64,000 nucleotides of DNA from Patescibacteria group bacterium (GCA_041665365.1 JBAYIY010000003.1:4260-68259), one strand, 5' to 3'. Shown: positions 10,456-54,611, counted from the first letter of the stretch. Numbers and translations are program-made. Notes: generated from the letters alone by a model not told the origin.

Positions 10456-10503
10456 CAAAACTAACGTAGGGGTAATTCATGAATTACCCCTACGTTAGTT
10501 TTG
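10456..10503. repeat. 48-bp perfect palindrome CAAAACTAACGTAGGGGTAATTCA|TGAATTACCCCTACGTTAGTTTTG; intergenic copy of the IHELPL palindrome family
   Basis: Read directly from the sequence; its 30-bp core is identical to the in-CDS copy at 54484-54525. Confidence 0.7.
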
Positions 10504-10522
10504 TGTCTCTACTGGTTTTGAT

Positions 10523-10597
10523 ATATATTTGTTCTTGACCGATTAGAAAATTCATGATATCGTCATCTTGAAAGCGCTGAAAAGGGCGCTTTTTGTG
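10523..10597 (+). repeat. ~70-bp direct repeat, copy 1 (promoter-like TTGACC plus hairpin AGCGCTGAAAAGGGCGCT-T5); flanks the higBA-like module
   Basis: Near-identical (about 5 mismatches) to 11202-11275. Confidence 0.6.
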
Positions 10598-10602
10598 TTG
10601 TT

Positions 10603-10905
10603 ATGGAATTACATACCAAACCAATTGTTGAGGATTTTATTCAAAACCTAGAAACGTCTACAATGGCTAAAGTTTCTAGAACAATTGATTTATTAGAAAA
10701 ATTTCAATACTCATTAGGAATGCCGCATAGCAAAAGAATTGGCCGTAATATTTTTGAGTTACGAATTAGAGGTAAACAGGAAGTCAGATTAGTTTATACA
10801 TTTAAAGATGATTTTATCATTTTGTTTTATGGATTTATTAAGAAATCTAATCAAATTAATCAACGAAACCTAAACAATATCTACCATTTATTTGACAGTT
10901 TATAA
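10603..10905 (+). CDS. type II toxin, RelE/ParE superfamily (HigB/Gp49-like)
   Basis: 100 aa; motif ..GRNIFELRIRGKQEVRLVYTF.DDFIILFYGFIKKS is typical of HigB/Gp49 toxins; an HTH antitoxin follows. Confidence 0.6.
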   Translation: MELHTKPIVEDFIQNLETSTMAKVSRTIDLLEKFQYSLGMPHSKRIGRNIFELRIRGKQEVRLVYTFKDDFIILFYGFIKKSNQINQRNLNNIYHLFDSL

Positions 10906-10929
10906 CGTATAAGTTATAATCATTCTTAT

Positions 10930-11199
10930 ATGGAATATAAGAAATTTAAAGAAAGAGTATTACGTGATCCTGAGGTAAGAAAAGCCTACGATGCACTGGG
11001 ACCAGAGTTTGCTTTAATTGAATCTTTAATCTCTAAACGTATAGCCAAACAACTCACTCAAACAGCTTTGGCTAAAAAAATTAACACTAAACAATCTGCC
11101 ATCGCTCGGTTGGAGTCTGGGAAGTATAATCCCAGTTTAGCTTTTCTGAATAAAGTAGCCGTAGCATTAGATACCAGAGTAAAAATAACTATTGAGTAA
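10930..11199 (+). CDS. XRE-family HTH antitoxin (HigA-like)
   Basis: 89 aa; HTH motif LTQTALAKKINTKQSAIARLESGK; immediately downstream of the toxin. Confidence 0.65.
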   Translation: MEYKKFKERVLRDPEVRKAYDALGPEFALIESLISKRIAKQLTQTALAKKINTKQSAIARLESGKYNPSLAFLNKVAVALDTRVKITIE

Positions 11200-11201
11200 C
11201 T

Positions 11202-11275
11202 ATATTTCTTGACCGATCATAAAATTTATGATATCGTCATCTTGAAAGCGCTGAAAAGGGCGCTTTTTGCGTAGA
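11202..11275 (+). repeat. ~70-bp direct repeat, copy 2 (upstream of ftsK)
   Basis: Matches 10523-10597. Confidence 0.6.
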
Positions 11276-11308
11276 CGGCACCTTGAAAATATGATATAGT
11301 CCGAACCT

Positions 11309-13486
11309 ATGGCGAAGAAATCGAAAAGTGGAAAAGCTCGAGCTAGTGAGCCAATGATGGATCAAACCACCCGTCGTGGCGTGTTAAGTATCATTATTCT
11401 GGCCTTAGCTCTCATTACGATCTTGAGTTTATTCGGATTAGCCGGAACCATCGGTGTTTATTTCAATACCGGATTAACCACCGTAGTGGGATTAGGTCGA
11501 TATATAGTACCGATTTTGCTACTCATTGTTGTTTATCATTTATTGGCACCAAAAGACGCCGAATTGGAATTATCTCCATTATTTATCACAGGCATGGTAA
11601 TAATGGCGGTGGGTATCTTTGGCCTAATTGATATTGTTCAACCGCAAGCTGGTGGTTATGTGGGTACGGCTTTAACCTACCTGTTCAGAACTATGGCTAG
11701 TGTGGGGGTGGCGGTGGTAATATTCGTAGCCTTCATTCTCATTTCTATCCTGATTGTCTTTAATGCTTCATTGTTGAATATTATTCAGCACATTCCAGCA
11801 CGTACCATGTTAGGTAAGACACTGCGGTTTGTGGTTGCCTTTTTTGGTAGTGCTCGACAAAGATTAGCCATTGCTAAAGAAGAAGCCATGACTGAGGTCG
11901 AAGCAGTGGAGGAAATTCATGAATTGCCAACTGATGAACCTGAACCAGATTACACAGAAAATAGTGTCGATGCATTGGATGAAGAGATCATTGATACAGA
12001 AGAAGGTAAACAAATGAAACTAGTGCGCATACCAAAACATCATCGCAAGATCGATTTACCTTTAGATTTATTATCTAGTAATAAAGGTAAGCCGACCAGT
12101 GGTGATATTGAACACAATAAAGAGATAATTGTGCGCACACTGCAAAACTTTGGGATTGATGTTGAATTAGGCCCGGTCAGTGTTGGGCCAACTGTGACAC
12201 AATATAGTTTTCGTCCAGCCTCAGGTGTAAAAGTATCCCAAGTTGTTTCATTGCAAAATGATTTAGCTTTGGCCTTAGCGGCTCATCCAATTAGGATCGA
12301 AGCACCAATTCCTGGGAAATCATTAATTGGCGTGGAAGTACCAAATATTAAGGCAGCTCAAGTGGGGTTGCGAGAACTACTTGAATCAGATGAGTTTAGA
12401 CAACGTAAAACCAATCTAACTTTAGTGTTTGGTAAAGATGTCTCTGGTAAAGCCTTTGTTGGTGATCTAGCTGCCATGCCGCATATGTTAATTGCTGGTG
12501 CCACCGGTTCTGGAAAATCGGTTTGTATGAACACAGTGCTGATCAGTTTGCTTTATCAGAACGGACCCGATGATTTGAAGATCGTGTTAGTTGATCCAAA
12601 ACGAGTTGAGTTTAGTATGTACAATGACATTCCGCATTTACTGACACCAGTTATTACGGATGTGCAAAAAACCATCAATGCCTTACAGTGGACGGTAAAC
12701 GAAATGGATCGTAGATACGAAGTCCTCGCTCAAGCTAAAAAGCGTGATATTGCTGGCTATAATACAGCTCATCCTGAGCAAACTTTACCTTATATAGTGT
12801 TTGTGATTGATGAATTAGCTGATCTGATGGCCACAGCACCACGTGAGGTTGAAGCCGCGATTGTTCGTTTAGCTCAAATGGCTCGGGCAGTAGGTATTCA
12901 TTTGGTATTGGCTACGCAACGTCCGTCGGTTGATGTTATCACTGGGTTAATCAAAGCCAATATCACAACGCGCTGTGCCTTTTCAACCGCATCGGTGGTT
13001 GATTCACGCACCATTCTTGATATGTCTGGTGCCGAAAAACTATTAGGACGAGGGGACATGCTTTATATGAGTACCGACTCATCTAAGCCGCGTCGTTTAC
13101 AAGGTGCCTTTGTATCGGAAGAAGAGATTAGTCACGTGGTCACTTACTTAAAAGACAATGGTAAGCCGGATTACGATACTGAGGTGGTGGAACGGGGCAA
13201 GACCGGTGCCTTACCACAAGCCTTTATGGATAGCGAGGCCGATGATGAATTATTACCCGCTGCCAAAAAGGTGATTGTCGATTCACAGAAAGCCTCAGCA
13301 TCTTTACTGCAAAGACGTCTGCGGGTAGGGTATGCCCGAGCGGCGCGCTTACTGGATATTTTGGAAGAGCAAGGTTTTATTGGCCCGGCTGATGGTGCTA
13401 AACCACGTGAAATCATGTCCGTGTCTACTGACACAGATATTCCCACACCTGAAGCAGTTGACGAAGATGACACTACCAACGTTTAA
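11309..13486 (+). CDS. ftsK: DNA translocase FtsK/SpoIIIE
   Basis: N-terminal TM helices, an acidic linker, Walker A (GATGSGKSVCMN) and a gamma domain. Confidence 0.9.
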   Translation: MAKKSKSGKARASEPMMDQTTRRGVLSIIILALALITILSLFGLAGTIGVYFNTGLTTVVGLGRYIVPILLLIVVYHLLAPKDAELELSPLFITGMVIMAVGIFGLIDIVQPQAGGYVGTALTYLFRTMASVGVAVVIFVAFILISILIVFNASLLNIIQHIPARTMLGKTLRFVVAFFGSARQRLAIAKEEAMTEVEAVEEIHELPTDEPEPDYTENSVDALDEEIIDTEEGKQMKLVRIPKHHRKIDLPLDLLSSNKGKPTSGDIEHNKEIIVRTLQNFGIDVELGPVSVGPTVTQYSFRPASGVKVSQVVSLQNDLALALAAHPIRIEAPIPGKSLIGVEVPNIKAAQVGLRELLESDEFRQRKTNLTLVFGKDVSGKAFVGDLAAMPHMLIAGATGSGKSVCMNTVLISLLYQNGPDDLKIVLVDPKRVEFSMYNDIPHLLTPVITDVQKTINALQWTVNEMDRRYEVLAQAKKRDIAGYNTAHPEQTLPYIVFVIDELADLMATAPREVEAAIVRLAQMARAVGIHLVLATQRPSVDVITGLIKANITTRCAFSTASVVDSRTILDMSGAEKLLGRGDMLYMSTDSSKPRRLQGAFVSEEEISHVVTYLKDNGKPDYDTEVVERGKTGALPQAFMDSEADDELLPAAKKVIVDSQKASASLLQRRLRVGYARAARLLDILEEQGFIGPADGAKPREIMSVSTDTDIPTPEAVDEDDTTNV

Positions 13487-14141: not shown

Positions 14142-14172
14142 TTAGGTAATTAATCAAACGACAATAAAATTT

Positions 14173-15231: not shown

Positions 15232-15239
15232 AAAAAAAT

Positions 15240-15268
15240 GCACGGGACGAATAATATTCGTCCCGTGC
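15240..15268. terminator. bidirectional rho-independent terminator (14-bp perfect stem GCACGGGACGAATA / TATTCGTCCCGTGC)
   Basis: Flanked by an A8 run upstream and T-rich sequence downstream; lies between the convergent recA and 15294..15614. Confidence 0.65.
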
Positions 15269-15293
15269 ATTTATGCGATTTGCCGGTGTGGAT

Positions 15294-15614
15294 TTAAAAA
15301 TTGAATTTCCGGCTGAGGTCGTAAGCGACTGGGATTTTCCAATATTTGCCTTGTAGTGTATTGACGACGGCAATAACATCTAATACTAAGACAACGACGC
15401 CCAATAACCAGCCGATTACTGGAATGACAGAAATGAGTAAGGCCACGAACATTACAGCTCCTTGGCGAGCATGTTCTTGGCAGAACTTACTATCCTTTTT
15501 GGCTAACATTGGAATCAAGAACAAGATGCCAACATAGCTTAAACAAGCCATGACTTTGTTTTCCTCAACATCTTTGGGGTCAAACTTGACCTCGCTCATA
15601 TTTTTGTTATCCAT
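15294..15614 (-). CDS. small membrane protein, DUF4870-like
   Basis: 106 aa; two hydrophobic helices; ..ACLSYVGILFLIPMLAKKDSKFCQEHARQGAVMF.. resembles the DUF4870 family. Confidence 0.45.
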   Translation of the reverse strand: MDNKNMSEVKFDPKDVEENKVMACLSYVGILFLIPMLAKKDSKFCQEHARQGAVMFVALLISVIPVIGWLLGVVVLVLDVIAVVNTLQGKYWKIPVAYDLSRKFNF

Positions 15615-15662
15615 AATAATTTGGATTGATTACATTTATTAATAATAATTATTATAACACGT

Positions 15663-17584
<1,922 letters not shown>

Positions 17585-17634
17585 ACGTTTTAGTGGTTAG
17601 AGACATACCATGGTATGTCTTTACAAATTAGCTA

Positions 17635-17661: not shown

Positions 17662-17664
17662 AAG

Positions 17665-17694
17665 TAGTGTAGCGAAAGGGGTTACTCCCTGTCA
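17665..17694 (-). promoter_or_regulatory. candidate groESL promoter TTGACA-18-TACACT (minus strand), immediately upstream of CIRCE
   Basis: Reverse complement of 17689-17694 is TTGACA and of 17665-17670 is TACACT. Confidence 0.5.
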
Positions 17695-18863
17695 AGCCGG
17701 TAAAACCAGCCAATAATTACGCACCAAATGAGGGTTAAACTGGGAATGGTCCAGAAATAATGATCAGTTATACCCAGTAATAATATCGCTAATAATAAGT
17801 ATGCGGCTGGTTTGGAAATGAGCTGGTTTTTATGTAAGATAACGGGGTATAAAATGAACCAATACCAAATAATAGCACCAAATACTCCCAGTTCGCCCAG
17901 AATCATCAGTGTGACATTATGAATTGGAGTTACTGTTTCACTGGTATATTGACCAATGCCAATACCGAGTGGCCAACGTTGTTTAAATACGGTGCTAAAT
18001 TCTTGTATTTGGTCTTGTCGTTCAGTGATAGAATTTTGTTCAACATAATTGGTCGCTGTTATACGGCTATTTATTAGTGGCCAATAAATAATCAAACAAA
18101 TAATTAATACTCCCAGACTACTAATAAGAAAATAAGGATCAATTTTTTTAGCGATAATCATTATTACCAGCATGACACACCAGACTAATAAAGCTGTTCG
18201 AGAAAAAGTTAAAATTAAACCTAATGTCATTACCGCACCAGGTACAGCTAGCCACCAGTATTTTTTCGAGAGATAAGCCGTTGCTATTAAGCATAATAAT
18301 ATTAAACCGCCGGTGATATTAGGGTGAGGCATTAGGCCATAAGCCCGTAACCAACGACCGGAATCTGTTAATACCACCGCCACACCAGAGGTAGCTGGTA
18401 GTTGACTGGCTACCCCGAGCCATTTATTCGGAATAACTTCCTGAAAAATGAATTGACTAATATTTGTAAAAGATTGGATACAACCAATTAAAGTAAAAGT
18501 ACCAAGCAACCAATCAGATTTTAGCGGAGATGTAGCGATAATGGCCATGAGCCATAAACCAAGAGCGAGATGTAGCCAATAATACAAGGCTAGATTTTGA
18601 TCGTGACCAAAATAGCTTGAGCCCGCCGCCACTATTAAAATGGCACATCCCAACAAACTGGCTAATAAATTTGGCTGTAGGGTTGTTTGGTGATACCAGT
18701 ACCATAACCACAACAAACCAACTATGACAATTAATATATCAAAACCATACAGAGCGATAATCGCGAACTGGTTTTGTGAAATTGTTAATATTAGGCGTGT
18801 TTGAAAGGGCAAAAAAAATATTAGGGTATATATGGCGACTTGAAGAACAACTGGTAGTTTCAT
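17682..18863 (-). CDS. polytopic membrane protein, O-antigen ligase/polymerase-like
   Basis: About 10 TM helices; family assignment is by overall topology only; start chosen at MKLPVV. Confidence 0.4.
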   Translation of the reverse strand: MKLPVVLQVAIYTLIFFLPFQTRLILTISQNQFAIIALYGFDILIVIVGLLWLWYWYHQTTLQPNLLASLLGCAILIVAAGSSYFGHDQNLALYYWLHLALGLWLMAIIATSPLKSDWLLGTFTLIGCIQSFTNISQFIFQEVIPNKWLGVASQLPATSGVAVVLTDSGRWLRAYGLMPHPNITGGLILLCLIATAYLSKKYWWLAVPGAVMTLGLILTFSRTALLVWCVMLVIMIIAKKIDPYFLISSLGVLIICLIIYWPLINSRITATNYVEQNSITERQDQIQEFSTVFKQRWPLGIGIGQYTSETVTPIHNVTLMILGELGVFGAIIWYWFILYPVILHKNQLISKPAAYLLLAILLLGITDHYFWTIPSLTLIWCVIIGWFYRLDRE

Positions 18864-18894
18864 CTTCTTATCATAACACAATCTAACCAGAATA

Positions 18895-18938
18895 CACCTT
18901 CCCAACCTTCCTATTGTAGGAAGGAGTAAGAAAGAAAA
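18895..18938 (+). repeat. member of the nested-hairpin repeat family (CACCTTCCCAACCTTCCTATTGTAGGAAGGAGTAAGAAAGAAAA)
   Basis: Shares the leader CACCT.CCCAACC, a hairpin, and the AGTAAGAAAGAAAA tail with copies at 28091, 43441 and 53382. Confidence 0.45.
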
Positions 18939-21471: not shown

Positions 21472-21585
21472 TTCCGGAGTTTACCCACTCACTGGAATGT
21501 ACCCCCTAGCCCCCTTGCAGGGGGAACAAGATTTTTTCTCACACTTTTTCTTAGCCCCCTGCAAGGGGGTTGGGGGTAAATTCCG
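21472..21585. mobile_element. MITE-like ~100-bp hairpin-rich repeat, copy A (TIRs TTTACCC(C)C/GGGGGTAAA; internal GCCCCCTTGCAGGGGG and GCCCCCTGCAAGGGGG hairpins)
   Basis: About 90% identical to 48769-48872; fills the gap between two convergent stop codons. Confidence 0.6.
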
Positions 21586-25346: not shown

Positions 25347-26528
25347 ATGCGCACTGTTATAGCTCAACAATTAAAGACTTTACCCAAACAACCGGGTGTA
25401 TATTTGTTCAAAAACCGGTTTGGTAATGTTCTGTATGTCGGCAAAGCCAAAGTTTTACAACAACGGGTGCGGTCATATTTTCGCGCACAGACCGACTTAT
25501 CTGATTTAAAGTTATTAATGATTCCACAGATTGATGTGATTGATACCATTCCGGTAGCGACAGAGACGGACGCGATTGTTTTAGAAGACCAACTGATTAA
25601 AGATTATCAGCCACGCTTTAATACTTTAGCCAAAGACGATAAAAGTTTTTTATATATTCATATTACCGCCGAAACTACTCCGCGTATCCTGGCCGTCCGG
25701 CGGCCAGATTTAGCGAGTGGAGGAATTTTTTACGGACCATATCCGTATGCAAAAAATATCCGATCGCTGTTACTTTTAATACATAAAATTTTCCCGGATA
25801 CTCAACAAATCGATCGGGTGATTGCCTTGTTAGAGGGTAAATTGTCTAACTTAATTCCAGACTTACAGACCGCCATGCAGCAGGCAGCGCGCCAAAAACA
25901 CTTTGAACGAGCCGCCCATTTACGCGATCAAATCCGAGCTGTGCAACAATTAAAAATGTTACGCAAAACACCGCGCCAATACTTGTTAGAAAGAATGCAA
26001 ACTACATCTTTGGATATAATGATCGGCCTGAAGGAATTATCACACGCCTTACATTTACCAGAATCTTTGCACCGCATTGAAGTGTATGACATCTCGCACC
26101 ACCAGGGGCGATATATGGTTGGTTCGATGATTGTGTTTATTGATGGCTTACCGGATAAAGCCGAGTATCGTCGATTTAAAATTAAAAGTGTGTTAACCGG
26201 TCAATCGGATGATTTTAAAAGTTTACGGGAAGTGGTGCAGCGCAGATTAAAACGTGATTGGTCATTACCGGATTTGGCGATTATGGACGGCGGTAAGGGG
26301 CAACTTAGTGCGGTGGCACCATTGTGGCAATTAGCCGGAGTGCCAGTAGCAGCTTTAGCCAAAAAACGGGAAGAATTATTTTTACCCGGTATACCTTTGC
26401 CGGTATTATTATCAGCCGGGAGTCAGGGTTTATTTTTAGTACAAAGAATGCGCGATGAAGCGCACCGGTTTGCGATTAGTTATTATCGTTTATTGCACAG
26501 CCGGGCTATGCGCCAGGCAGGGAAATAA
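25347..26528 (+). CDS. uvrC: UvrC-like excinuclease subunit, short form (GIY-YIG plus RNase H-like endonuclease domain; no C-terminal (HhH)2)
   Basis: GIY-YIG motif (GVYLFKNRFGNVLYVGKAKVLQQRVRSYF) and C-terminal UvrC endonuclease motifs; 393 aa; divergent from uvrA. Confidence 0.7.
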   Translation: MRTVIAQQLKTLPKQPGVYLFKNRFGNVLYVGKAKVLQQRVRSYFRAQTDLSDLKLLMIPQIDVIDTIPVATETDAIVLEDQLIKDYQPRFNTLAKDDKSFLYIHITAETTPRILAVRRPDLASGGIFYGPYPYAKNIRSLLLLIHKIFPDTQQIDRVIALLEGKLSNLIPDLQTAMQQAARQKHFERAAHLRDQIRAVQQLKMLRKTPRQYLLERMQTTSLDIMIGLKELSHALHLPESLHRIEVYDISHHQGRYMVGSMIVFIDGLPDKAEYRRFKIKSVLTGQSDDFKSLREVVQRRLKRDWSLPDLAIMDGGKGQLSAVAPLWQLAGVPVAALAKKREELFLPGIPLPVLLSAGSQGLFLVQRMRDEAHRFAISYYRLLHSRAMRQAGK

Positions 26529-27249
26529 TATCCTCAGCGGTCGCGCCGATCATGAGTAATTCAGCATCAGTGACAGTTAATTCTTCAGTACCAGATCGAA
26601 TAACTATACCATTACCAGTGTTAGACCGGAGGATAGTGGGTTGCTTATTTAATAAAGGTTGAACGGCGGGTAAAGCTGATAATTTTGTCATTAAACCAGA
26701 GGCTGGTTTTTGTAGAGGCAATTCATGAATTGCCTCTACAGGTTGTTGAGTGGGTTCAGGTTGTTCAAATGTGGCTAAAGCTGTTTTAGTGGCTTGAACT
26801 TTCTTTTGCAGATCAGTGAGTTGATCGGCATAGCGTTGGTTAATATGATCCATTTCATCCAACAGACCCTGGCGATCTAACCCACCGGCGGAATAATTAT
26901 CAAAAGCTTTTTTCTCATCGATTTTTTGTAATCTAACCACTTCTTTGAGTTGGGTATTTTGTTTTTGTAAAACCTCTTTTAACTGAGCGATCTGTGCGGT
27001 GTTATCTGGCACAGCGGCCGTTTGACGATCCAGTTCAAACAATTCACGTTCTAGTGCCTGTTGGCGGGTTTCACTACCTTGGATTTTAGAAATCCAATCT
27101 TTCATGTTACCCAAAAGAGTATTCTCTTCTTGTTGTAATTTTTCTAGTTCAGCTTGTACCGCACTCCGGCGATCCGGCGTAGCCGAAACTGGTGTCACAG
27201 GTGGAACTGGTTGTAACTTAACGTTGGGGGATAAAGTTATATCTGGCAT
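26506..27249 (-). CDS. hypothetical coiled-coil protein
   Basis: Heptad-rich central region; contains an in-frame palindrome copy encoding AIHELPL. Confidence 0.4.
   Translation of the reverse strand: MPDITLSPNVKLQPVPPVTPVSATPDRRSAVQAELEKLQQEENTLLGNMKDWISKIQGSETRQQALERELFELDRQTAAVPDNTAQIAQLKEVLQKQNTQLKEVVRLQKIDEKKAFDNYSAGGLDRQGLLDEMDHINQRYADQLTDLQKKVQATKTALATFEQPEPTQQPVEAIHELPLQKPASGLMTKLSALPAVQPLLNKQPTILRSNTGNGIVIRSGTEELTVTDAELLMIGATAEDIISLPGA
26711..26740. repeat. 30-bp perfect palindrome TGTAGAGGCAATTCA|TGAATTGCCTCTACA inside a CDS (IHELPL family, diverged copy)
   Basis: Read from the sequence; differs from the 54484 copy by symmetric compensatory changes. Confidence 0.55.
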
Positions 27250-28042: not shown

Positions 28043-28090
28043 AGAACAATATGAGAATTGTACAACGGATGTTTTTTTGAGGCAAGGGGG

Positions 28091-28192
28091 AGACCTCTCC
28101 TCCCCAACCCTCCTCTCCTTCGTTAGGAGAGGAGGGAGTAAGAAAGAAAACCCCCTCTCCTTCTGAAGGAGAGGGGCAGGGGGAGAGGTCTC
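28091..28192. repeat. composite nested-hairpin repeat R1 (outer IR GAGACCTCTCC/GGAGAGGTCTC enclosing two hairpins and the AGTAAGAAAGAAAA motif)
   Basis: Related to 53382-53510 (the hairpin CCCCTCTCCTTCTGAAGGAGAGGGG is identical); overlaps the uvrD stop codon. Confidence 0.55.
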
Positions 28193-33679: not shown

Positions 33680-33686
33680 TGTTTTT

Positions 33687-35486
33687 ATGATGCAACAGCA
33701 GTCACATCCGCATTACTTTAGGCGGAAACCTCGCACTATTCAGCGCACAGTTAGTCGTGCTAATGGTGGGCAAAGATTTGTTCAATCACCCAGTGTCGCT
33801 CCGGTGGCAGTGGGCGTAGGCAAACATAAATTACGCGTCGCCATTGTCGGTGGCGCGGAAGAAGTTGGTCGTAATATGACCATGATTGAATATGGCAAAG
33901 ATGTCATATTAATCGATTGTGGTTTACAGTTCCCGGAAGAAGATCAACCGGGCATTGATTACATTATTCCTAATGTGTCATACCTGAAAGGTCGTGAGCA
34001 AGATGTTAAAGGGATCGTTATTACCCATGGTCATTATGATCATATTGGCGGTATACCACATCTGTCACCCGTCCTGCATCATCCACCGATTTACGGTACT
34101 AAACTAACCAACGGTATTATCATGAAGCGGCAGGATGATTTTCCAGATAAAGGCAAAATTGATTTACGGGAAATTAATCCAGATCAACCCATTCAGCTAG
34201 GGATATTTAAATTAGAATTTTTCCGGGTCAATCATAATATTCCAGATTGTGTTGGTATTATTGTGCATACACCAGAAGGCACTTTAGTGCATACTGGTGA
34301 TTTCAAGTTTGATTTACAACCCATCATGGATGAGATCACAGATTTTGCTAAAATGGCCGTGCTTGGTCAACAAGGTGTTTTAGCCTTGTTATCTGATTCA
34401 ACCAATGCTCCATCGGCTGGCCATCAGATTTCCGAAACGGTGATTGGTTATACCTTGGATGAAATTTTCCGCAAAGCTAAAGGGCGCGTAATTGTTGGTA
34501 CGTTTGCTTCACTGTTAAACCGGTTACAACAAGTCATTTGGATTTCGGAAAAGTATGGTCGTAAGATTGTCATTGAAGGTTTCAGCATGAAGAGTAACAT
34601 TGAAATTGCCAAAGAGCTAGGCTACCTGAAAGTGAATCCAAAAACTATTATCACGCCACAGGAAGCCGTGCGATTGCCAGAAGATAAACTCACTATTATG
34701 TGTACCGGCGCCCAAGGGGAGAGTAACGCGGCACTGATGCGCATTGCCACCCGTGAGCACAGATTTTTCCGGATCCAAAAAGGTGACATGGTGATCTTTT
34801 CCTCATCGGTCATTCCTGGCAACGAACGCACCGTGCAACGTTTAAAGGATACCTTACTGAAGGAAGGTGCTAAGGTGATTCATTACGAAATGATGGATGT
34901 GCATGCCGGTGGTCACGCCAAAGCCGAAGATTTGAAATTACTCTATACCTTACTAGATCCAAAATACATTGTGCCAGTGGAAGGTAATCGTTGTTTGTTG
35001 GAAGCCAATAAAACAGTAGCCCTCGAAATGAAATGGCCAGACGAGCATGTTTTCGTGACAACGAACGGTCAGATTATGGAATTTTCTGGTGGTGAAGGTA
35101 GATTAACCAAAGAAAAAATCCCCAGTGATTATGTGATGGTAGATGGGTTAGGTGTCGGTGATGTGCAAGAAGTGGTGCTACGTGATCGCCAATTAATGAG
35201 TGAAGATGGCATGTGCATTATTGTTGTGACGATTAAAACTCAAACCGGCGAAGTGATTGGCGCACCAGAAATTATCACGCGTGGGTTTATCAACATTAAA
35301 GATGCCAAACATTTAATTGATGAAACCCGTGAAAAAGTAAAACGCATTTGCCAGCAAAAACATCCTGAAGCGGCGGCCACTAATCCGCAATTCATTAAAA
35401 ACAAGTTACGTGATGATATCGGGCAATTCTTATTTCAACGCACCCAACGCCGTCCCATGATTTTACCGGTGGTGGTTGAGGTGTAA
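33687..35486 (+). CDS. rnj: ribonuclease J
   Basis: Metallo-beta-lactamase motif (ITHGHYDHIGG), beta-CASP and C-terminal domains. The start was moved to ATG 33687 because the ORF-track start overlaps the upstream gene. Confidence 0.85.
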   Translation: MMQQQSHPHYFRRKPRTIQRTVSRANGGQRFVQSPSVAPVAVGVGKHKLRVAIVGGAEEVGRNMTMIEYGKDVILIDCGLQFPEEDQPGIDYIIPNVSYLKGREQDVKGIVITHGHYDHIGGIPHLSPVLHHPPIYGTKLTNGIIMKRQDDFPDKGKIDLREINPDQPIQLGIFKLEFFRVNHNIPDCVGIIVHTPEGTLVHTGDFKFDLQPIMDEITDFAKMAVLGQQGVLALLSDSTNAPSAGHQISETVIGYTLDEIFRKAKGRVIVGTFASLLNRLQQVIWISEKYGRKIVIEGFSMKSNIEIAKELGYLKVNPKTIITPQEAVRLPEDKLTIMCTGAQGESNAALMRIATREHRFFRIQKGDMVIFSSSVIPGNERTVQRLKDTLLKEGAKVIHYEMMDVHAGGHAKAEDLKLLYTLLDPKYIVPVEGNRCLLEANKTVALEMKWPDEHVFVTTNGQIMEFSGGEGRLTKEKIPSDYVMVDGLGVGDVQEVVLRDRQLMSEDGMCIIVVTIKTQTGEVIGAPEIITRGFINIKDAKHLIDETREKVKRICQQKHPEAAATNPQFIKNKLRDDIGQFLFQRTQRRPMILPVVVEV

Positions 35487-35501
35487 AAAACACGAACCGT
35501 T

Positions 35502-35539
35502 GTCCGGTAGAGACATGCCATAGCATGTCTCTACCGGAC
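35502..35539. terminator. bidirectional terminator hairpin (17-bp perfect stem GTCCGGTAGAGACATGC / GCATGTCTCTACCGGAC)
   Basis: Lies between the convergent rnj and serpin genes; followed by an A-rich tract. Confidence 0.65.
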
Positions 35540-35547
35540 AAAAACAT

Positions 35548-36813
35548 TTATTTCAATGGATCAACCATTCTACCCATGAATAAAATATTTCCGCTTTGGT
35601 TGTCAAGAATAATAAAAACAAACGGATGATCAGCGCGAAACACCGGTATTTCAGTTTGTGCGGCTGACAATGACGTAGTTACACCAGTCGCAGCGGCAGC
35701 TTCAGTGCCGGCTTCATTTACATCAATAAACGCTTGATGAATGACCGATTGGATAAATAAATCTTTAGTTCCATCCATACCAGAAAAATCAGCGTTTGTA
35801 GAAAAAGCCGTTGGCATGCCCATGGCCTTTAAGGTGTCATTCAAAGTATATTTTGTATCCAGGGTGAATTTTGGTAGATAGACATCAACTAGTTGTTCAT
35901 TCAGGCTAGCTTTCCAAGCATCAAGTTGTTTTACAGAGAGTGATGATTCTAATATTGAGAGATCATTGGTTTTGGGTAGTAAAACCAACATCGATAATTG
36001 TTTACCTTGATAGGGGAGTTCAAGCACCTGAGTGGTAACATCAGCCACATAGCGAAATTTTGTTGCGGTGTTGGTTTGCTGCATCATGGGAACGCGCACA
36101 GTTTCAGTAGAGGAGATATTAAAATTCTCTTCGCTGGTGTCAGTTTGGTTAAACTGTGTTAACCACTCACCTTTAAAATATACCGCATTGGTTAATACCA
36201 ATTTGGTTATTTCAGAAATTGTACCATTCGGAAAAAGATCTTTAATTTTATCATTGGTTTTGTCTGCCACCCAGGTGTTAATAGTATTCCTGGATGCTTC
36301 TGGATTATTGGCAAAATCCAAATTGGTGGCTTCACCGCCAAAGTATTGGTGTACTGTATTTAAATAATCAGCCTGCAATTTATAATCTTGTTGTACCCAT
36401 AAAGCATTGGCGACATTAAATTGATAATCAGTGTTAGTAGTGGTCAGTCGATCATTCAGTGCTTGATAGGCAATGCGCCGATCAGTTTCATCAGTTGGAA
36501 ATTGAAAGACCGCTTGCATTTCTTTAGCAGTGTTACCTCGAGCGCCTTCATAAACCATGGCAAACGCTGTAGACAAACTATATGGGGAAAAGAACACATT
36601 ACCAGAATCATTTTTTAATTGATTATAAAGATTAAAGGCAAATCCATTATTTACATCAACCACGGCCGTAGCACAAGCCAAGGCTTTATTATTATTGGTT
36701 GTGGCACTGGGAGATTTAATAAATGGGTTGTTTTTACTAAAATAAATTAAAACATCAGCACAAACAATAGCAACTAGGGCAAGTACCATAATGACCAGAA
36801 TTTTCTTTTTCAT
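35548..36813 (-). CDS. serpin-family protease inhibitor with N-terminal signal anchor
   Basis: ..FFSPYSLSTAFAMVYEGARGNTAKEM.. and the C-terminal serpin signature ..FRADHPFVFIILD...GNILFMGRMVDP. Confidence 0.85.
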   Translation of the reverse strand: MKKKILVIMVLALVAIVCADVLIYFSKNNPFIKSPSATTNNNKALACATAVVDVNNGFAFNLYNQLKNDSGNVFFSPYSLSTAFAMVYEGARGNTAKEMQAVFQFPTDETDRRIAYQALNDRLTTTNTDYQFNVANALWVQQDYKLQADYLNTVHQYFGGEATNLDFANNPEASRNTINTWVADKTNDKIKDLFPNGTISEITKLVLTNAVYFKGEWLTQFNQTDTSEENFNISSTETVRVPMMQQTNTATKFRYVADVTTQVLELPYQGKQLSMLVLLPKTNDLSILESSLSVKQLDAWKASLNEQLVDVYLPKFTLDTKYTLNDTLKAMGMPTAFSTNADFSGMDGTKDLFIQSVIHQAFIDVNEAGTEAAAATGVTTSLSAAQTEIPVFRADHPFVFIILDNQSGNILFMGRMVDPLK

Positions 36814-42185: not shown

Positions 42186-43464
42186 AATCCCGACCATCCT
42201 AATTTTTGGGTTAGGCGGTTATGTGCATGGCAGTGGTACTGCCGCGGCTCTGTATTTTGCTAAACAGGGCTATCATGTGATTGTGACCGATCAAAAATCT
42301 GCCGATCTATTACATCAAGGCACAATAAAAAAATTAAATAAATACCCCAATGTTGAGTTAGTGTTGGGAAAACATCGTAAAACCGATATTAGACGAGCTG
42401 ATTTGATAGTTCGTAATCCGGGTGTGTCGGATCAATCACCCTTTATGCAGTATGCCCACCAATTAAAAAAACCGATTACAAATGATGTGGGTATTTTCTT
42501 GGATGAATTAAAAGAGCAGTTCGGGCCAGATGGTGTGACGGTGGTTGGTATCACCGGAACGCGCGGTAAAAGTACCACTACGGCTTTAATTGGCCACATG
42601 CTACAAGCACGGGTGGGCGGAAACATTGGTTTGTCACCCTTAACTTTTCTCAATAAAATCAAAGCTAATGATGTAGTAGTGTTAGAGCTATCTAGTTGGT
42701 TATTACGTGATTTACATCTACCTAGTTTGTCTGTCGCAGTAGTAACAAACATGTTGCGCGATCACATGAATTATTACAAAAACATGTCATTGTATCAGGC
42801 CGATAAAGAACGCATCTTTTTAGGCCAAGCACCCTACCATCATGCTGTAGTAAATGCGACTGATAGTAGAGTTCGTCAGATGGCAAAAAAAACTAAAGCG
42901 CAATTACATTGGTTTAATAAAACCAGTATTAAGGGAGTACAATTATTAGGTGAACATAATCAATTTAATATTGGGGCGGCTTGGCAAGTAGGGAAAGTAT
43001 TTGGTTTAACCGATAAACAATTAGTTGCAGCTGTTAAATCATTTAAACCATTAGCGAATCGTTTAGAAGTAATTCGCGTACATAACGGTCGGACATTTAT
43101 CAACGATACTACAGCCACAACTCCAGATGCGACTATTGCAGCACTGTTATCATTTAAGAAAAAAGTGATTTTAATTGCTGGTGGCAACTCTAAACAGTTA
43201 TCATTAACAGCCCTGCGTAAATTAATCCCTCAACATGTAAAAAAACTGATTTTATTACCCGGTAATGCCAATCATGATTTTCCTCCTGGTATTACTGTGT
43301 CTACCATGGCGCAAGCCGTGCGTACTGCCTGGCAGTTATCCAAACCCGGCGATATTATTTTATTATCGCCGGGTGTGACCTGGTTACCCTTAATGAATGA
43401 ATTTAAACGCGGTGAAGAGTTTGTTAAGGAGGTAAAAAAACACCTCCCCAACCCTCCTATATAG
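42157..43464 (+). CDS. murD: UDP-N-acetylmuramoylalanine--D-glutamate ligase
   Basis: Mur ligase P-loop (GITGTRGKSTTTALIGHML) and N-terminal Rossmann-like region; start uncertain (overlaps trpS). Confidence 0.8.
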   Translation: MSKVKSASTKIPTILIFGLGGYVHGSGTAAALYFAKQGYHVIVTDQKSADLLHQGTIKKLNKYPNVELVLGKHRKTDIRRADLIVRNPGVSDQSPFMQYAHQLKKPITNDVGIFLDELKEQFGPDGVTVVGITGTRGKSTTTALIGHMLQARVGGNIGLSPLTFLNKIKANDVVVLELSSWLLRDLHLPSLSVAVVTNMLRDHMNYYKNMSLYQADKERIFLGQAPYHHAVVNATDSRVRQMAKKTKAQLHWFNKTSIKGVQLLGEHNQFNIGAAWQVGKVFGLTDKQLVAAVKSFKPLANRLEVIRVHNGRTFINDTTATTPDATIAALLSFKKKVILIAGGNSKQLSLTALRKLIPQHVKKLILLPGNANHDFPPGITVSTMAQAVRTAWQLSKPGDIILLSPGVTWLPLMNEFKRGEEFVKEVKKHLPNPPI

Positions 43465-43512
43465 GAGGGAGTAAGAAAAAATCTTAACCCCTTCCTAAAT
43501 AGGAAGGTGTAT
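43441..43512 (+). repeat. nested-hairpin repeat family member (CACCTCCCCAACCCTCCTATATAGGAGGGAGTAAGAAAAAA plus a second hairpin CCTTCCTAAATAGGAAGG)
   Basis: Shares leader, hairpin and AGTAAGAAA tail with the other copies; its 5' part encodes the last 8 residues and the stop codon of murD. Confidence 0.5.
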
Positions 43513-48350: not shown

Positions 48351-48386
48351 GATTAATGATAAAGTTCTTTTAAGAAGCGCCGCCTT

Positions 48387-48800
48387 GTGAGGGGGCGTTT
48401 TATGTACTTAAAAGAACCTACTCAAAATCAGATTAAATTACAACATAAACTACAATTGTTAGCACGTAAGTTACGAAATAATCCTACTCAAGCTGAAGTG
48501 GTGTTATGGAACAGATTAAAAGAAAAACAACTTGGTTGTAAGTTCAGACAGCAATATCCACTCTTTCAATTCATTGTAGATTTTTATTGTTCATCTCATC
48601 GATTAATCATTGAGGTCGATGGTTTAATCCATGAACAACAACGTGATTATGATCAGTTACGTGATCAGATAATGATGCGACATGGTTACTCAGTGATGAG
48701 ATTCGCGAATGCTGAAATCATGAATGATCTAGATAAGGTAATCGACAAGATTAAGGAGAAACTAAATGGATTTACCCCCTCACTGGAATTTACCCCCTAG
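48387..48800 (+). CDS. DUF559 domain protein (Vsr-like PD-(D/E)xK endonuclease fold)
   Basis: ..LARKLRNNPTQAEVVLWNRLKEKQLGCKFRQQYPLFQFIVDFYCSSHRLIIEVDG..HEQQRDYD..RD..GY.VMRF matches the DUF559 signature; the last 10 codons and the stop lie inside the MITE-like element. Confidence 0.75.
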   Translation: MRGRFMYLKEPTQNQIKLQHKLQLLARKLRNNPTQAEVVLWNRLKEKQLGCKFRQQYPLFQFIVDFYCSSHRLIIEVDGLIHEQQRDYDQLRDQIMMRHGYSVMRFANAEIMNDLDKVIDKIKEKLNGFTPSLEFTP

Positions 48801-48872
48801 CCCCCTTGCAGGGGGAATAAGATATTTAAACCACTTTTTCTTAGCCCCCTGCAAGGGGGTTGGGGGTAAAGT
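48769..48872. mobile_element. MITE-like ~100-bp hairpin-rich repeat, copy B
   Basis: About 90% identical to copy A; supplies the 3' end of the DUF559 ORF and lies between convergent stop codons. Confidence 0.6.
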
Positions 48873-48876
48873 TAGA

Positions 48877-51062: not shown

Positions 51063-51079
51063 TGTGCTAGAATAGGCAG

Positions 51080-52327
51080 ATGTTAGAACATTTACGCCAC
51101 CAAGACCCGGAGCTGGCCGGTTATATCACCAGTGAATTAGATCGACAGCGTCATAATTTAGAGTTAATTCCCTCGGAGAATTTTGTCTCATTGTCGGTGT
51201 TAGAAGCGTTAGGGAGTATTTGTACTAATAAATATTCAGAAGGCTATCCCGGTAAACGTTATTACGGTGGTAATCAATTTATCGACAAAATTGAGCAATT
51301 AGCCATTGATCGAGCCAAGCAGATTTTTGGCGCCGAGCATGTGAACGTGCAGCCATTATCTGGTGCACCGGCTAACTTAGCGGTTTATACAGCTTTGCTA
51401 CAACCAGGCGATACAGTGTTGGGGATGGATCTTACGCATGGTGGCCACCTTACACACGGGCACCCGGTGACCTTCATGGCTAAAGTATATAATTTCATTC
51501 GTTATAAAACTAAACCGGATGGTTTAATTGATTTCGATCAAGTGCGTGCCTTAGCCTTAGAACATAAACCAAAATTAATTCTGGCCGGTTTTTCAGCCTA
51601 TTCACGTGAGTTGGAGTATGAAAAATTCCAAGCTATTGCCGATGAAGTTGGTGCTATGACCATGGCCGATATTGCACACATTGCCGGTTTGATTGCGGCC
51701 GGTGAATTAAAAAACCCGGTACCGATTTTTGATGTTGTCACTACTACCACACATAAAACATTACGCGGTCCACGCGGTGGTATGATTATGTGTAAAGCCA
51801 AACATGCTGCGGCTATAAACAAAGCGGTGTTTCCTGGTGTGCAAGGTGGCCCGCATGAACATCAAATTGCGGCCCTGGCTGTGGCGCTTAAAGAAGCGAT
51901 GACACCAGAGTTTAAACAATATGCTAAGCAAATTCGTTTAAATGCGCAGGTGTTATGTACTGAACTTAAAGCCGGAGGTTTAACTATTATGCATGGTGGT
52001 AAAACAGATAATCATTTGCTTGTGGCTGATGTTACTCCCTTAGGTATTACCGGTAAAATCGCGCAGACGGTATTGGATGAAGTAAACATCACGTTAAACA
52101 TGAACACCATTCCAGACGATCCACGTGGGCCAATGGATCCATCCGGTATTCGTTTAGGTTCGCCACCAATGACAACGCGCGGTATGAAAGAACCAGAGAT
52201 GAAAATCATCGCTGAGTTGATTCTAAAGACATTGAAGAATCATAATAACGAGACAATTAAACAAGAGGTTAAACAAGCCGTGATTGCGTTAACCGATAAG
52301 TTTCCGCTGTACCCGGAGTTAGGTTAA
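51080..52327 (+). CDS. glyA: serine hydroxymethyltransferase
   Basis: ..LELIPSENFVS..; a PLP-site T(T)THKTLRGPRGG-type region; full-length SHMT similarity. Confidence 0.95.
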   Translation: MLEHLRHQDPELAGYITSELDRQRHNLELIPSENFVSLSVLEALGSICTNKYSEGYPGKRYYGGNQFIDKIEQLAIDRAKQIFGAEHVNVQPLSGAPANLAVYTALLQPGDTVLGMDLTHGGHLTHGHPVTFMAKVYNFIRYKTKPDGLIDFDQVRALALEHKPKLILAGFSAYSRELEYEKFQAIADEVGAMTMADIAHIAGLIAAGELKNPVPIFDVVTTTTHKTLRGPRGGMIMCKAKHAAAINKAVFPGVQGGPHEHQIAALAVALKEAMTPEFKQYAKQIRLNAQVLCTELKAGGLTIMHGGKTDNHLLVADVTPLGITGKIAQTVLDEVNITLNMNTIPDDPRGPMDPSGIRLGSPPMTTRGMKEPEMKIIAELILKTLKNHNNETIKQEVKQAVIALTDKFPLYPELG

Positions 52328-52328
52328 T

Positions 52329-53384
52329 ATGAGTTTACAAATTGGTATTGTTGGCTTGCCGAACGTGGGGAAATCCACTTTGTTTAAGGCGCTGACAAAA
52401 ATTCAGGTTGATGCCAGTAATTATCCATTTTGCACCATTGACCCGAATGTGGGTGTAGTGGCTGTGCCGGATGAACGCTTACAAAAATTAAGTGATTTAT
52501 CGCACTCGGCGAAAATGGTTCCGGCGGTGATTGAGTTTGTGGATATTGCTGGGTTAGTGGCTGGTGCCTCAAAAGGGGAAGGGTTAGGCAATAAATTTTT
52601 AGCCAACATTCGTGAAGTTGATGCCATCATTCAAGTAGTGCGCGAGTTTACTGACAATAATGTGGTGCATGTCCATGGTAAGGTTGATCCTAAAACTGAT
52701 ATTGAGGTAATCAATTTAGAATTGATTATGGCGGATTTACAACAAATCCAAAATGCGACGGAAAAGTTAGGTAAAAAAGTGCGGGCGCAAGATAAAGGAG
52801 CGGTCGCAGAATTGGCGGTTTTGGAAAAAATTAAAACCGCTCTTGAAGCCGGCCAATTAGCCAACACAGTGGCATTAGATGCAGAGAAAGAAGAACCATT
52901 GATTAAACACCATAGTTTATTAACACGAAAACCAATTTTGTATGTGGTTAATGTTGATGAAGCGGTGCAGGCCAAAATTATCATTCCCGGAGCGGTGACA
53001 ATATCGGCGAAAATAGAATCGGAATTAGTGGAGCTTTCGGCTGATGATGCTAAAATGATGATGGATGAATTAGGTATGACAGAAACCGGTTTGGAAAAAT
53101 TAATTACCGCGTGTTATAAATTATTAGATTTACAATCATTCTTGACCACTGGTGAAGATGAAACCAGAGCTTGGACAATTAAACGCGGCACCAAAGCCCC
53201 CCAAGCCGCCGGTGTGATTCATTCTGATTTTGAACAAAAATTTATTCGCGCTGAAGTGATTAATTGGCAAAAATTACTCGAAGCCGGTGGTTATCCAACT
53301 GCGCGTGATAAAGGTTGGCTACGCATGGAAGGCAAAAATTATGTGATGCAGGATGGGGATGTGGTGGAGTTTCATCATGCTTAG
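52329..53384 (+). CDS. ychF: redox-regulated ATPase YchF (Obg-like GTPase family)
   Basis: [15 protein letters not shown]-loop and a TGS-like C-terminal domain. Confidence 0.9.
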
Positions 53385-53510
53385 ACCTCTCCCCTAACCC
53401 CTCTCCTTCTGAAGGAGAGGGGAATAAGAAAAATAATGTTGAATCTATTTTTGTGTTCTTACTCCCTACTCTCCTGATGAAGGAGAGGAGGGCTGGGGAG
53501 GAGAGGTCTA
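53382..53510. repeat. composite nested-hairpin repeat R2 (outer IR TAGACCTCTCC/GGAGAGGTCTA; shares hairpin CCCCTCTCCTTCTGAAGGAGAGGGG with R1)
   Basis: The outer inverted repeats contain the TAG stops of both convergent genes (ychF and the methyltransferase). Confidence 0.55.
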
Positions 53511-54611
53511 GGTTCGTTTCAAAAAATAAATTTTCCGTAACACCCTAGCCTGATCGCGACCATAGAAAATCGGTTTATGAAATACCGTGAAGCCGGCTTG
53601 TTTAATGGCTTGGTCTAAATCCATTTGGAGTATACCCTGAGATTGTTTCCAAGCTGGTAGTGCTAACACCATACGGCCAGTTGGTTTTAACAACTTAGAT
53701 AATTCTATAAAAACTTTACTATAAAAATCCGTGAGTTGTTGTTTGATTTGGTTAATGTTATGTAACTGTACCGGGCCAAGTGTACCTTCTCCCACAATAA
53801 CATCAACAGCTTGATTTGATAAATGATCTTTTAATTTTAAAACATCCGCACAGATTAATTTGGCTTCAGGTAATTTTGCCCATGATAAATTGGCTTGCGT
53901 ATCGGCAATACACTGTGGGGAAATATCACTGCCAACTACAGAGGTATAACCTAATTGTAATGCTTCTTGCACAACTGTGCCGGAACCACAAAATGGATCC
54001 AAAATGGTATTAGATTTCATCGGACGGGCAATATTTAGCATCATTCTGGCTACTTTGGGTGGCAGCATGCCGGAAAAACTATCTCGCTTAGGGCGGCCAT
54101 AATCGTTCTGAGAAAAGGTTTTAAAATCTTGCACTGCAGTAGTGCGACCGAAAATGGTTTTATCTTTATAGAGAGCCACAATAAAATCGGTTTGATCGCG
54201 TAACAAGTGTTCTTTGGTGACAATGACTGATGATAAATTAGTTTCATTACTCACCACAAATCTAACCGATCGACCACCCTCACGTAATTTTTTTTTCCAA
54301 GTTAAACCCAATTCCCGTAGTTGATGGTTTTTATCATTAATCATACTAGCTGATATTGTCTCATCACCGGCATACACACTGAACCCAAATACCAATTTAT
54401 GATCAGCCGGAATCTGTTCTAATAATTGATAAATTTCATCAATGTTTCCATCAATCTGGTCGGCAATTTTAACCGTACCACCCAAATCCCGTAGGGGTAA
54501 TTCATGAATTACCCCTACGGGATTTATCAACACAACCTGTCCACCGGTGTAATCCACACCCAATTCCAAAGCGGACAATTCTGGGGTGTTTCCTAAGACA
54601 GCAAGTTTCAT
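53508..54611 (-). CDS. class I SAM-dependent RNA methyltransferase, Trm11/RlmL-like (N2-guanine type) with a putative N-terminal THUMP-like region
   Basis: Motif I ..ILDPFCGSGTVVQEA.. is typical of THUMP-associated N2-G methyltransferases; its N-terminal region carries the in-frame palindrome (..PVGVIHELPLR..). Confidence 0.55.
   Translation of the reverse strand: MKLAVLGNTPELSALELGVDYTGGQVVLINPVGVIHELPLRDLGGTVKIADQIDGNIDEIYQLLEQIPADHKLVFGFSVYAGDETISASMINDKNHQLRELGLTWKKKLREGGRSVRFVVSNETNLSSVIVTKEHLLRDQTDFIVALYKDKTIFGRTTAVQDFKTFSQNDYGRPKRDSFSGMLPPKVARMMLNIARPMKSNTILDPFCGSGTVVQEALQLGYTSVVGSDISPQCIADTQANLSWAKLPEAKLICADVLKLKDHLSNQAVDVIVGEGTLGPVQLHNINQIKQQLTDFYSKVFIELSKLLKPTGRMVLALPAWKQSQGILQMDLDQAIKQAGFTVFHKPIFYGRDQARVLRKIYFLKRT
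54484..54525. repeat. 42-bp perfect palindrome AAATCCCGTAGGGGTAATTCA|TGAATTACCCCTACGGGATTT inside a CDS, in frame
   Basis: Read from the sequence; encodes NPVGVIHELPLRDL in the methyltransferase. Confidence 0.65.

Follow-up and report, generated by a model that had tools for sequence, protein, structure and literature searches.

In a window of 64,000 nt of Patescibacteria DNA, which lies within the 180,377-bp contig k141_1012231 (ENA ERZ27249449) of a Kerfeldbacteria-like genome, a short perfect palindrome occurs both between genes and in frame within genes. We consider it very likely that these elements are GTAG double-foot repetitive extragenic palindromes (REPs), the cognate repeat of subclass 2.4 (Bertels group 4) of TnpA_REP, the REP-associated tyrosine transposase (RayT). 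The assignment draws on the anatomy of the elements, their hairpin potential, the covariation of their paired bases, their distribution across genomes, their linkage to RayT-like genes elsewhere and their location in protein loops or linkers, all of which are direct observations.

The palindrome centre AATTCATGAATT is found four times in the window (at 10474, 11914, 26720 and 54499). Enrichment was judged by expected counts and by shuffled sequence: 0.03 occurrences are expected and none of 100 shuffles reaches four. The 30-mer CGTAGGGGTAATTCATGAATTACCCCTACG, for which zero occurrences are expected, is present exactly at 10465-10494, between genes, and at 54490-54519, within the coding sequence (CDS) of a methyltransferase. 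A previous reading of the window, made from the sequence only, had described all four sites, and they are present as it described them. Comparison of the copies defines a conserved unit of 28 bp, GTAG[G/A]GG[C/T]AATTCATGAATT[G/A]CC[C/T]CTAC, whose two feet are GTAG and its complement CTAC, and every variant is its own reverse complement. Feet of the GTAG...CTAC type are seen in the three intact copies of the window (Table 1). The intergenic one is indeed a perfect palindrome, but it is 50 bp long (10455-10504) and not 48 bp (10456-10503) as previously given; the perfect palindromes of 42 bp in the methyltransferase gene and 30 bp in a coiled-coil gene are confirmed. The fourth copy, in the linker of an FtsK gene, had been taken for a shorter remnant of 17 nt. 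It is degraded, but it extends over the full length of the unit, with 23 of 28 positions in agreement with the 28-nt consensus (the best of 30 shuffles reaches 21).

As single-stranded DNA (ssDNA), the three intact copies fold into hairpins of -24.6, -20.7 and -12.7 kcal/mol (z of -11.5, -8.3 and -6.4, respectively), the strongest being the intergenic copy; in the FtsK copy hairpin folding is lost. Palindromes with a stem of at least 9 bp number 14 in the window, as opposed to 0-5 in shuffled sequence. The full tally is three intact copies and one decayed copy of the AATTCATGAATT type, and one intact and one decayed copy of a second family that is described below.

The palindrome is not restricted to this genome. 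A scan of one genome per species with the pattern GRGGYAATTCATGAATTRCCYC, which leaves the GTA/TAC feet outside the pattern, detects it in at least 120 loci labelled as approximately 18-20 phylum-level lineages, in line with the earlier proposal of a dispersed palindromic family of mobile-element type. The labels include many Cyanobacteria, one metagenome-assembled genome (MAG) of Obscuribacterales and two other Patescibacteria MAGs, as well as Omnitrophota, Nitrospirota, Nitrospinota, Planctomycetota (anammox genera included), Chloroflexota, Desulfobacterota/'Deltaproteobacteria', Zixibacteria, Acidobacteriota, Gemmatimonadota, Sumerlaeota, Glassbacteria, Stahlbacteria, Spirochaetota, Bacteroidota, Balneolaceae, Coxiellaceae and Binatia. 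MAG labels may err for single contigs; the breadth of the distribution is clear regardless. The palindrome is also found on 14 IMG/VR contigs and five cyanobacterial plasmids, always under no annotated feature. One contig of 60% GC that is catalogued as viral (IMGVR_UViG_3300029959_001594) carries eight REP copies within 14.8 kb; it represents a host region dense in REPs or else a phage whose host is rich in them.

Most of the 124 external copies (94) have the C/G form GGGGCAATT...AATTGCCCC. The T/A form of the window accounts for 13, all of them in Cyanobacteria or the Obscuribacterales MAG, and the GAGG...CCTC form for seven; the symmetric variant found in the coiled-coil gene is also present in seven other genomes. 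The AT-rich centre is retained even in contigs of 57-70% GC, and the foot bases are GTA in 98 and TAC in 107 of the 124 copies. One variable pair is G-C in 110 copies, A-T in eight and mismatched in six, and a second is C-G in 103, T-A in 17 and mismatched in four. This covariation supports the conclusion that palindromy itself is maintained, as had been suspected from the symmetric, compensatory changes between window copies. About 10% of 128 copies are located well within long open reading frames (ORFs) and roughly 85-90% are extragenic.

The connection to RayT comes from the genes around the palindrome. We clustered all ORFs in 120 loci and obtained a family of ~185 aa with members in four loci, each from a different phylum. 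The protein matches PF01797 (Y1_Tnp), and its best NCBIfam model is NF047646, the REP-associated tyrosine transposase, with scores of 60-70 bits that are under the 80-bit equivalog cutoff; the match to E. coli TnpA_REP (PDB 4ER8) is weak. The other ORF clusters near REPs were discarded as generic (kinases, ABC transporters, STAND NTPases, AhpC, Fur and SmpB), so that the Y1_Tnp cluster is the only meaningful one. The arrangement of palindrome and gene in the four loci is given in Table 1. The L025 gene contains, at the same position, a different palindrome of the same super-family, which is read as RGVLQYAPT. With the metagenomic loci described below included, a RayT-like gene is flanked by AATTCATGAATT-type REPs in L015, L091, L135, L137 and L219. 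Upstream of the intact Chamaesiphon gene, two REP copies enclose a truncated duplicate of the RayT 5' end (L015 1617-1900).

A metagenome scan with the four RayT-like proteins identified 80 loci. A palindrome with GGG[G/C]...[G/C]CCC feet is located inside the gene in 47 of them, at a median of 270 nt from the match start, and at most 400 bp outside the gene in 29; the same centre is found both inside and outside in 15. Across these loci the feet GTAGGGGC...GCCCCTAC are constant and the inner stem varies by locus, being of the AATTCATGAATT type in four (L135, L136, L137 and L141). A protein search yielded at least 7,953 homologues, several of which are named 'REP element-mobilizing transposase RayT' by their source. 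Among the best 120 of these, IHELP is present in 71 and IHESP in 28, between the HuH and WQRNYYE motifs. The RayT-like proteins are 181-200 aa long and carry the motifs MPNHFH/MPNHIH/MPDHMH, WQRNYYE and YIINNP/YIVNNP/YIQENP/YIESNP. These motif classes (NH[FIM]H, WQ and YIxNNP/YIxxNP) fit the signatures of TnpA_REP subclass 2.4 (PMC6006769 Table 1), whose members have a median of 194 aa and bear NH[IFV]H, WQ and YIxNNP (Quentin, Siguier, Chandler & Fichant 2018, PMC6006769). The RayT genes of L137 (1307-1984) and of homologues P0211, P0231 and P0258 contain in-frame tandem arrays of partial REP units, for example NVGAVQNVGAVQNVGAIQNVGAIQNVGAIHELPL or runs of HELPLHESPL, and the in-gene REP is thus a hotspot of slippage or expansion.

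One RayT homologue, P0245, labelled Candidatus Paceibacterota, shares its ENA assembly with the window and is encoded on a contig of 50% GC (L219/L220 5896-7370; ENA ERZ27249449 k141_881920; JGI Ga0172379_10002313). The gene is flanked by hsdM on one side and hsdS on the other, both from a type I restriction-modification system, and shows the full REP-RayT-REP arrangement, with one REP upstream, one inside and one at the 3' end; a further in-frame copy is present within hsdS. Next on this contig come genes for an OLD-family nuclease and a UvrD helicase. Given that the contig also encodes CdhD, the Paceibacterota label may be a binning error.

Only one frame of each variant of the palindrome is open (VGVIHELPL, VGAIHELPL or VEAIHELPL); TGA or TAG closes the other two. 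By symmetry the open frame VG[A/V]IHELPL is identical on both strands. The ORF translations agree with the in-frame readings previously reported for the three window proteins. The methyltransferase ORF reads the REP as ...NPVGVIHELPLRDL..., in which PVGVIHELPL forms residues 29-38, the coiled-coil ORF reads it as ...PVEAIHELPLQK..., in which PVEAIHELPLQ derives from the repeat, and the FtsK ORF reads the decayed copy as (V)EEIHELPT (residues ~200-208). The sequence-only reading saw in the strand-symmetric peptide an element able to insert into coding regions without disrupting them. The symmetry is real, but since two of the three frames carry TAG or TGA, about two-thirds of insertions would truncate the host protein, and the observed copies are therefore survivors. 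Nor does the shared IHELP count as evidence: it is forced, being the sole open frame of an undisrupted copy, and hence provides neither independent support nor a sign of special adaptation.

All three protein sites are variable loops or linkers, a location that had been anticipated and is confirmed by orthologue alignments, an AlphaFold model and domain positions. In the methyltransferase, the 28 N-terminal residues before the REP are conserved, and thus the REP is truly internal. In 24 orthologues (identity of 41-63% across the aligned region), the place of PVGVIHELPL is taken by five variable residues, x-x-x-[DEPN]-[LIF]; the window protein thus has ten residues instead of five, a net gain of five codons (15 bp). 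In the AlphaFold model of this protein (mean predicted local distance difference test, pLDDT, of 91.8), residues 30-39 are coil and form the block of lowest confidence (pLDDT 63). The REP in the coiled-coil gene falls in a P/T-rich linker that is hypervariable and joins two conserved blocks; the motif is present in none of 17 homologues, and the linker differs in length and sequence in all 17. The FtsK copy lies between FtsK_4TM (44-161) and FtsK_alpha (252-346). None of 150 representative FtsK homologues contains IHE[LS]P, and the closest homologue (66% identity) has unrelated acidic residues at the REP site. Because orthologues of all three proteins lack the motif, IHELP is not an ancient conserved peptide, an alternative that the sequence-only reading had itself raised. 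The clean insertion of 10-14 codons that it had proposed to look for is not evident in the window: the methyltransferase gains five, and in the hypervariable coiled-coil and FtsK linkers no length difference can be assigned. The alignments are only partly informative on this point, given hypervariable sites and an identity of no more than 66% even to the nearest relatives.

Intragenic copies from other phyla are similarly placed. The REP is in frame between domains in the glutamate synthase GltB (L004), the glycine dehydrogenase GcvP (L079) and SelA (L061), and in frame straight after the ResIII domain of a helicase (L081). The GcvP copy corresponds to a clean 10-residue gap relative to Synechocystis GcvP (PDB 4LGL). 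We rejected an assembly or chimera artefact for the window, where the copies are within Patescibacteria genes and the proteins are recorded in several sources, ENA, JGI, NCBI and Logan among them.

In roughly one-quarter to one-third of the copies, the palindrome extends beyond the conserved unit. Among 95 copies with a full core, perfect palindromy reaches at least 3 bp further in 30 (1.5 expected) and at least 6 bp further in 20 (0.02 expected), and the extensions differ in sequence between copies. In two of the extended copies, one arm belongs to a functional coding sequence. The flank CGGGATTT of the methyltransferase copy encodes R-D-L, with a leucine that does not vary within the family, and its inverted copy AAATCCCG lies across the palindrome. 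In L015, it is the end of RayT, its last codons with the stop, that is mirrored past the REP. Such flanks may result from REP insertion at the centre of pre-existing palindromes, as proposed for certain families by Di Nocera et al. (PMC3733652), or one flank may have been copied inverted onto the other by fold-back or template switching.

A likely mechanism can be modelled on E. coli TnpA_REP and the TnpA of IS200/IS605 (cited in PMC6006769). The hairpin would extrude in ssDNA at the replication fork, where a RayT dimer would recognise the stem and the GTAG foot, cut and rejoin the strand, and seed new REP copies at other sites. Most copies would end up intergenic, with selection purging those that break genes, and survival within a gene would depend on the single open frame VG[A/V]IHELPL and on a loop or linker that tolerates about ten extra residues. 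The methyltransferase, coiled-coil and FtsK copies would be such survivors, the FtsK copy already decaying.

Several points weigh against the assignment to mobile RayT-type REPs. Only one of the four AATTCATGAATT-type copies in the window is extragenic, as opposed to roughly 85-90% elsewhere; the copy numbers come from 64 kb of the genome; and the methyltransferase site is no simple insertion of 28 or 30 bp, its net gain being only 15 bp. There is no RayT-like gene in the window and 13.6 kb of flanking sequence, which together cover 77.6 kb of the 180-kb contig: tblastn with the four RayT-like proteins finds no homologue in the window, its two contig extensions or the 14 viral loci. That the copies in the Patescibacteria genome were mobilised by such a protein is accordingly an inference. 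Furthermore, the published RayT biochemistry concerns the E. coli enzyme only, and cutting or moving of the hairpin by subclass 2.4 is putative.

These considerations leave room for the copies being passive relics with no cognate RayT, which arrived with horizontal DNA or in a past invasion and are now decaying, or are kept palindromic by replication template switching. The empty 77.6 kb and the decayed FtsK copy fit this explanation, as does the RayT with the same REP family on the 50% GC contig, which shows that donors co-occur with this organism, and the T/A variant, found among the at least 120 loci only in Cyanobacteria and one Obscuribacterales MAG. We nevertheless regard it as unlikely, because the identical 30-mer in two copies argues for recent copying within the genome and the copies are embedded in core Patescibacteria genes and not in foreign islands; moreover, the search for RayT covered less than half of the 180-kb contig. 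A much poorer prospect is an autonomous invader of coding regions with its own mechanism, unrelated to RayT and selected for translatability in either orientation, like the Rickettsia palindromic elements (RPEs). RPEs are roughly 100-150 bp long and not known outside Rickettsia, whereas the unit here is 28-30 bp. Although three of the four window copies are intragenic and in frame and the palindrome is the same on both strands, only about 10% of 128 copies are inside long ORFs, two of three frames are closed and the palindrome is in direct physical linkage with RayT genes. The extragenic majority and this linkage contradict the idea.

The perfect dyad symmetry, typical of operators, and the occurrence of the same peptide in three proteins could also suggest that the palindrome serves a DNA-binding regulator as operator or that IHELPL is a functional peptide. 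We give this the least credence of all. The orthologues of all three proteins lack the peptide, which contradicts a function for it, the peptide is dictated by the only open frame, and in the modelled case, the methyltransferase, the segment is a low-confidence surface coil. The identical DNA is found in approximately 18-20 labelled phylum-level lineages, mostly away from promoters, and inside GcvP and GltB. An explanation by HIP1-like or restriction sites was dropped because of the conserved 28-bp unit and the linkage to RayT.

If the elements are RayT-type REPs, as we favour, a more far-reaching scenario can be put forward as a tentative one, and as a whole we hold it to be rather doubtful. 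The near-invariant 28-bp REP (VGAIHELPL) and a RayT lineage might travel together as a horizontal unit across the approximately 18-20 phylum-level lineages, with carriers that would include ultra-small Patescibacteria, plasmids and contigs of virus catalogues. The copy inside RayT could be the master copy that guarantees the joint travel of enzyme and substrate. Spread would involve inverted duplication of a flank, by fold-back or template switching, at the cost of a few overwritten host codons, and housekeeping proteins would acquire new loops in frame.

Table 1. Palindromic elements and host genes of the window (coordinates from its first nucleotide), and arrangement of palindrome and RayT-like gene in four loci of other genomes
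Feature	Position	Strand	Remarks
Intergenic REP, T/A variant	10455-10504, core GTAGGGGTAATTCATGAATTACCCCTAC 10466-10493		50-bp perfect palindrome
Decayed REP GTGGAGGAAATTCATGAATTGCCAACTG in FtsK linker	11906-11933	read on +	23/28 consensus matches
REP variant GTAGAGGCAATTCATGAATTGCCTCTAC in coiled-coil CDS	26711-26740, core 26712-26739	read on -	30-bp perfect palindrome
REP in TRM11-like methyltransferase CDS	54484-54525, core 54491-54518	read on -	42-bp perfect palindrome
Decayed GTAGAGAC-type double-foot REP TTAGAGACATACCATGGTATGTCTTTAC	17597-17624		intergenic
Second double-foot REP family GTAGAGACATGC-CATA-GCATGTCTCTAC	35500-35541, core 35507-35534		7-bp palindromic flanks
FtsK/SpoIIIE DNA translocase, 725 aa	11309-13486	+	ORF and domain matches
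Coiled-coil protein, 247 aa, without Pfam match	26506-27249	-	kept in Kerfeldbacteria-like genomes
TRM11/UPF0020-type S-adenosylmethionine-dependent methyltransferase, 367 aa	53508-54611	-	PF01170, PF13847; Patescibacteria/Kerfeldbacteria homologues
RayT-like locus L015 (Chamaesiphon)			palindrome on both sides of gene; C/G and T/A variants both present
RayT-like locus L091			one copy just upstream, one in frame within gene
RayT-like locus L089			one copy in frame within gene
RayT-like locus L025			one copy ~175 bp downstream of gene

The intergenic REP is located 25 bp past the stop of the ORF 9504-10430(+) and upstream of a Gp49/HTH_3 gene pair. The hairpin is present, with a T-rich tail on the minus strand only, and the upstream gene is on the plus strand; a terminator role on the strand of that gene is not supported. 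A separate terminator-like site is found beyond the REP at 10570-10593(+). The intergenic copy may have a role in transcript termination or stability. The Gp49 (HigB-like)/HTH_3 pair (10603-11199) is toxin-antitoxin-like and occupies the space directly after this REP and before ftsK. A contig from Logan SRR6484324 (L216), an independent assembly of the same strain, stops at 10484 of the window, immediately beyond the centre of the 50-bp palindrome, which indicates that such REPs may fragment short-read assemblies.

The second double-foot family of the window has the form GTAGAGAC...GTCTCTAC. Its intact copy is positioned between the convergent ORFs 33582-35486(+) and 35548-36813(-) and forms a hairpin of -23.6 kcal/mol (z -11.9), and the decayed copy lies between the ORFs 15663-17303(-) and 17682-18905(-). 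A lone right foot of this family, GTCTCTAC at 10505-10512, abuts the intergenic palindrome of the IHELP type. Two further types of repeat were detected. A MITE-like repeat of ~95 bp (MITE, miniature inverted-repeat transposable element) has two intergenic copies, 21493-21585 and 48779-48870, with terminal inverted repeats TTTACCCCC...GGGGGTAAA and internal hairpins CCCCCTTGCAGGGGG / CCCCCTGCAAGGGGG. A family based on GAGACCTCTCC...GGAGAGGTCTC is found at 28088-28190, 43452-43469 and 53383-53510, and its inner hairpins are CCCCTCTCCTTC-T-GAAGGAGAGGGG (identical at 28152-28176 and 53398-53422) and CCCTCC...GGAGGG. With the REPs and the GAGACCTCTCC-family repeats, the contig is unusually rich in small palindromic repeats. 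In addition, a near-perfect palindrome of 37 bp at 15236-15272, with arms of 18 bp and no GTAG foot, begins 5 bp past the recA stop and is probably a terminator. A search of the window against Rfam at gathering thresholds detected one tRNA and nothing else.

These observations provide a key for annotation: VGAIHELPL, VGAIHESPL and spurious ORFs reading RRGNS*IAPT mark a REP and not a protein motif. They indicate that RayT-type REPs reach the streamlined Patescibacteria, and that REPs can add about ten residues to the loops of core proteins, here FtsK and the TRM11-like methyltransferase and elsewhere GcvP, GltB and SelA. To our knowledge, the copying of a REP has never been directly shown, and near-identity across phyla together with inverted flanks offers a concrete handle on how it occurs.

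Among known systems, the RPEs named in the sequence-only reading are a valid analogy, being palindromic repeats found in frame at tolerant protein positions, but they are not the closest relatives, as the GTAG double-foot REPs are nearer (PMC6006769, PMC3733652). The window unit differs from RPEs in its 28-30 bp, its GTAG feet and its Patescibacteria host; RPE-4 and RPE-6 have been assigned to the CGTC super-family, and no dedicated transposase is reported for CGTC REPs (PMC3733652). MITEs are 70-300 bp long with terminal inverted repeats (PMC3733652). Like MITEs and the PATE derivatives of IS200/IS605, the window element is small and non-autonomous and of a kind thought to be moved in trans by a transposase. 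Unlike them, it is a continuous hairpin of 28-50 bp with inverted flanks and no direct target duplication. The E. coli REPs, with their bacterial interspersed mosaic elements and TnpA_REP (PDB 4ER8), and the Pseudomonas REPINs share with it the hairpin, the GTAG guide and a Y1/HUH protein. However, E. coli REPs are imperfect, single-footed and species-specific and act as inverted pairs, whereas the window unit is a single perfect palindrome. The 28-mer of the window is common across phyla, in contrast to the relatively low similarity of REP consensus motifs across genomes stated in a section heading of a 2025 survey (PMC12306157).

GTAG-tagged REPs have been reported in Proteobacteria, Cyanobacteria, Chloroflexi and the PVC (Planctomycetes-Verrucomicrobia-Chlamydiae) group, mostly downstream of genes (Di Nocera, De Gregorio & Rocco 2013, PMC3733652). 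Some of them lie wholly inside ORFs of known proteins, where they are ascribed to linkers or loops, and some form part of longer palindromes (PMC3733652). As described there, the tag is unpaired and at one end, whereas in the window element it is at both ends and within the stem; the comparison with the 24 numbered families of that study is by description only.

The closest match is with subclass 2.4, which is hosted by Cyanobacteria, Bacteroidetes and various phyla, and whose 'double foot' REPs have a 5' GT[AG]G and a 3' C[TC]AC and occur in frame within tnpA_REP between HuH and Y (PMC6006769). The palindrome described here likewise has both feet on a long perfect hairpin, flanks a Y1 gene of ~190 aa, is present in frame inside that gene between HuH and Y, and is patchily distributed over phyla. 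It differs from subclass 2.4 REPtrons in that no RayT is found within 77.6 kb of this genome, and from the known subclass 2.4 hosts in its Patescibacteria host, 'Patescibacteria' and 'candidate phyla' being absent from the main text of PMC6006769. A family with the AATTCATGAATT centre and VGAIHELPL is not named in the accounts of REP families drawn on from that paper. A literature search found no relevant paper joining Patescibacteria with REPs, and for the literal core AATTCATGAATT it returned primer sequences only. The element class and its in-frame intragenic copies are thus already described, and what is new is the Patescibacteria host lineage and the specific sequence family.

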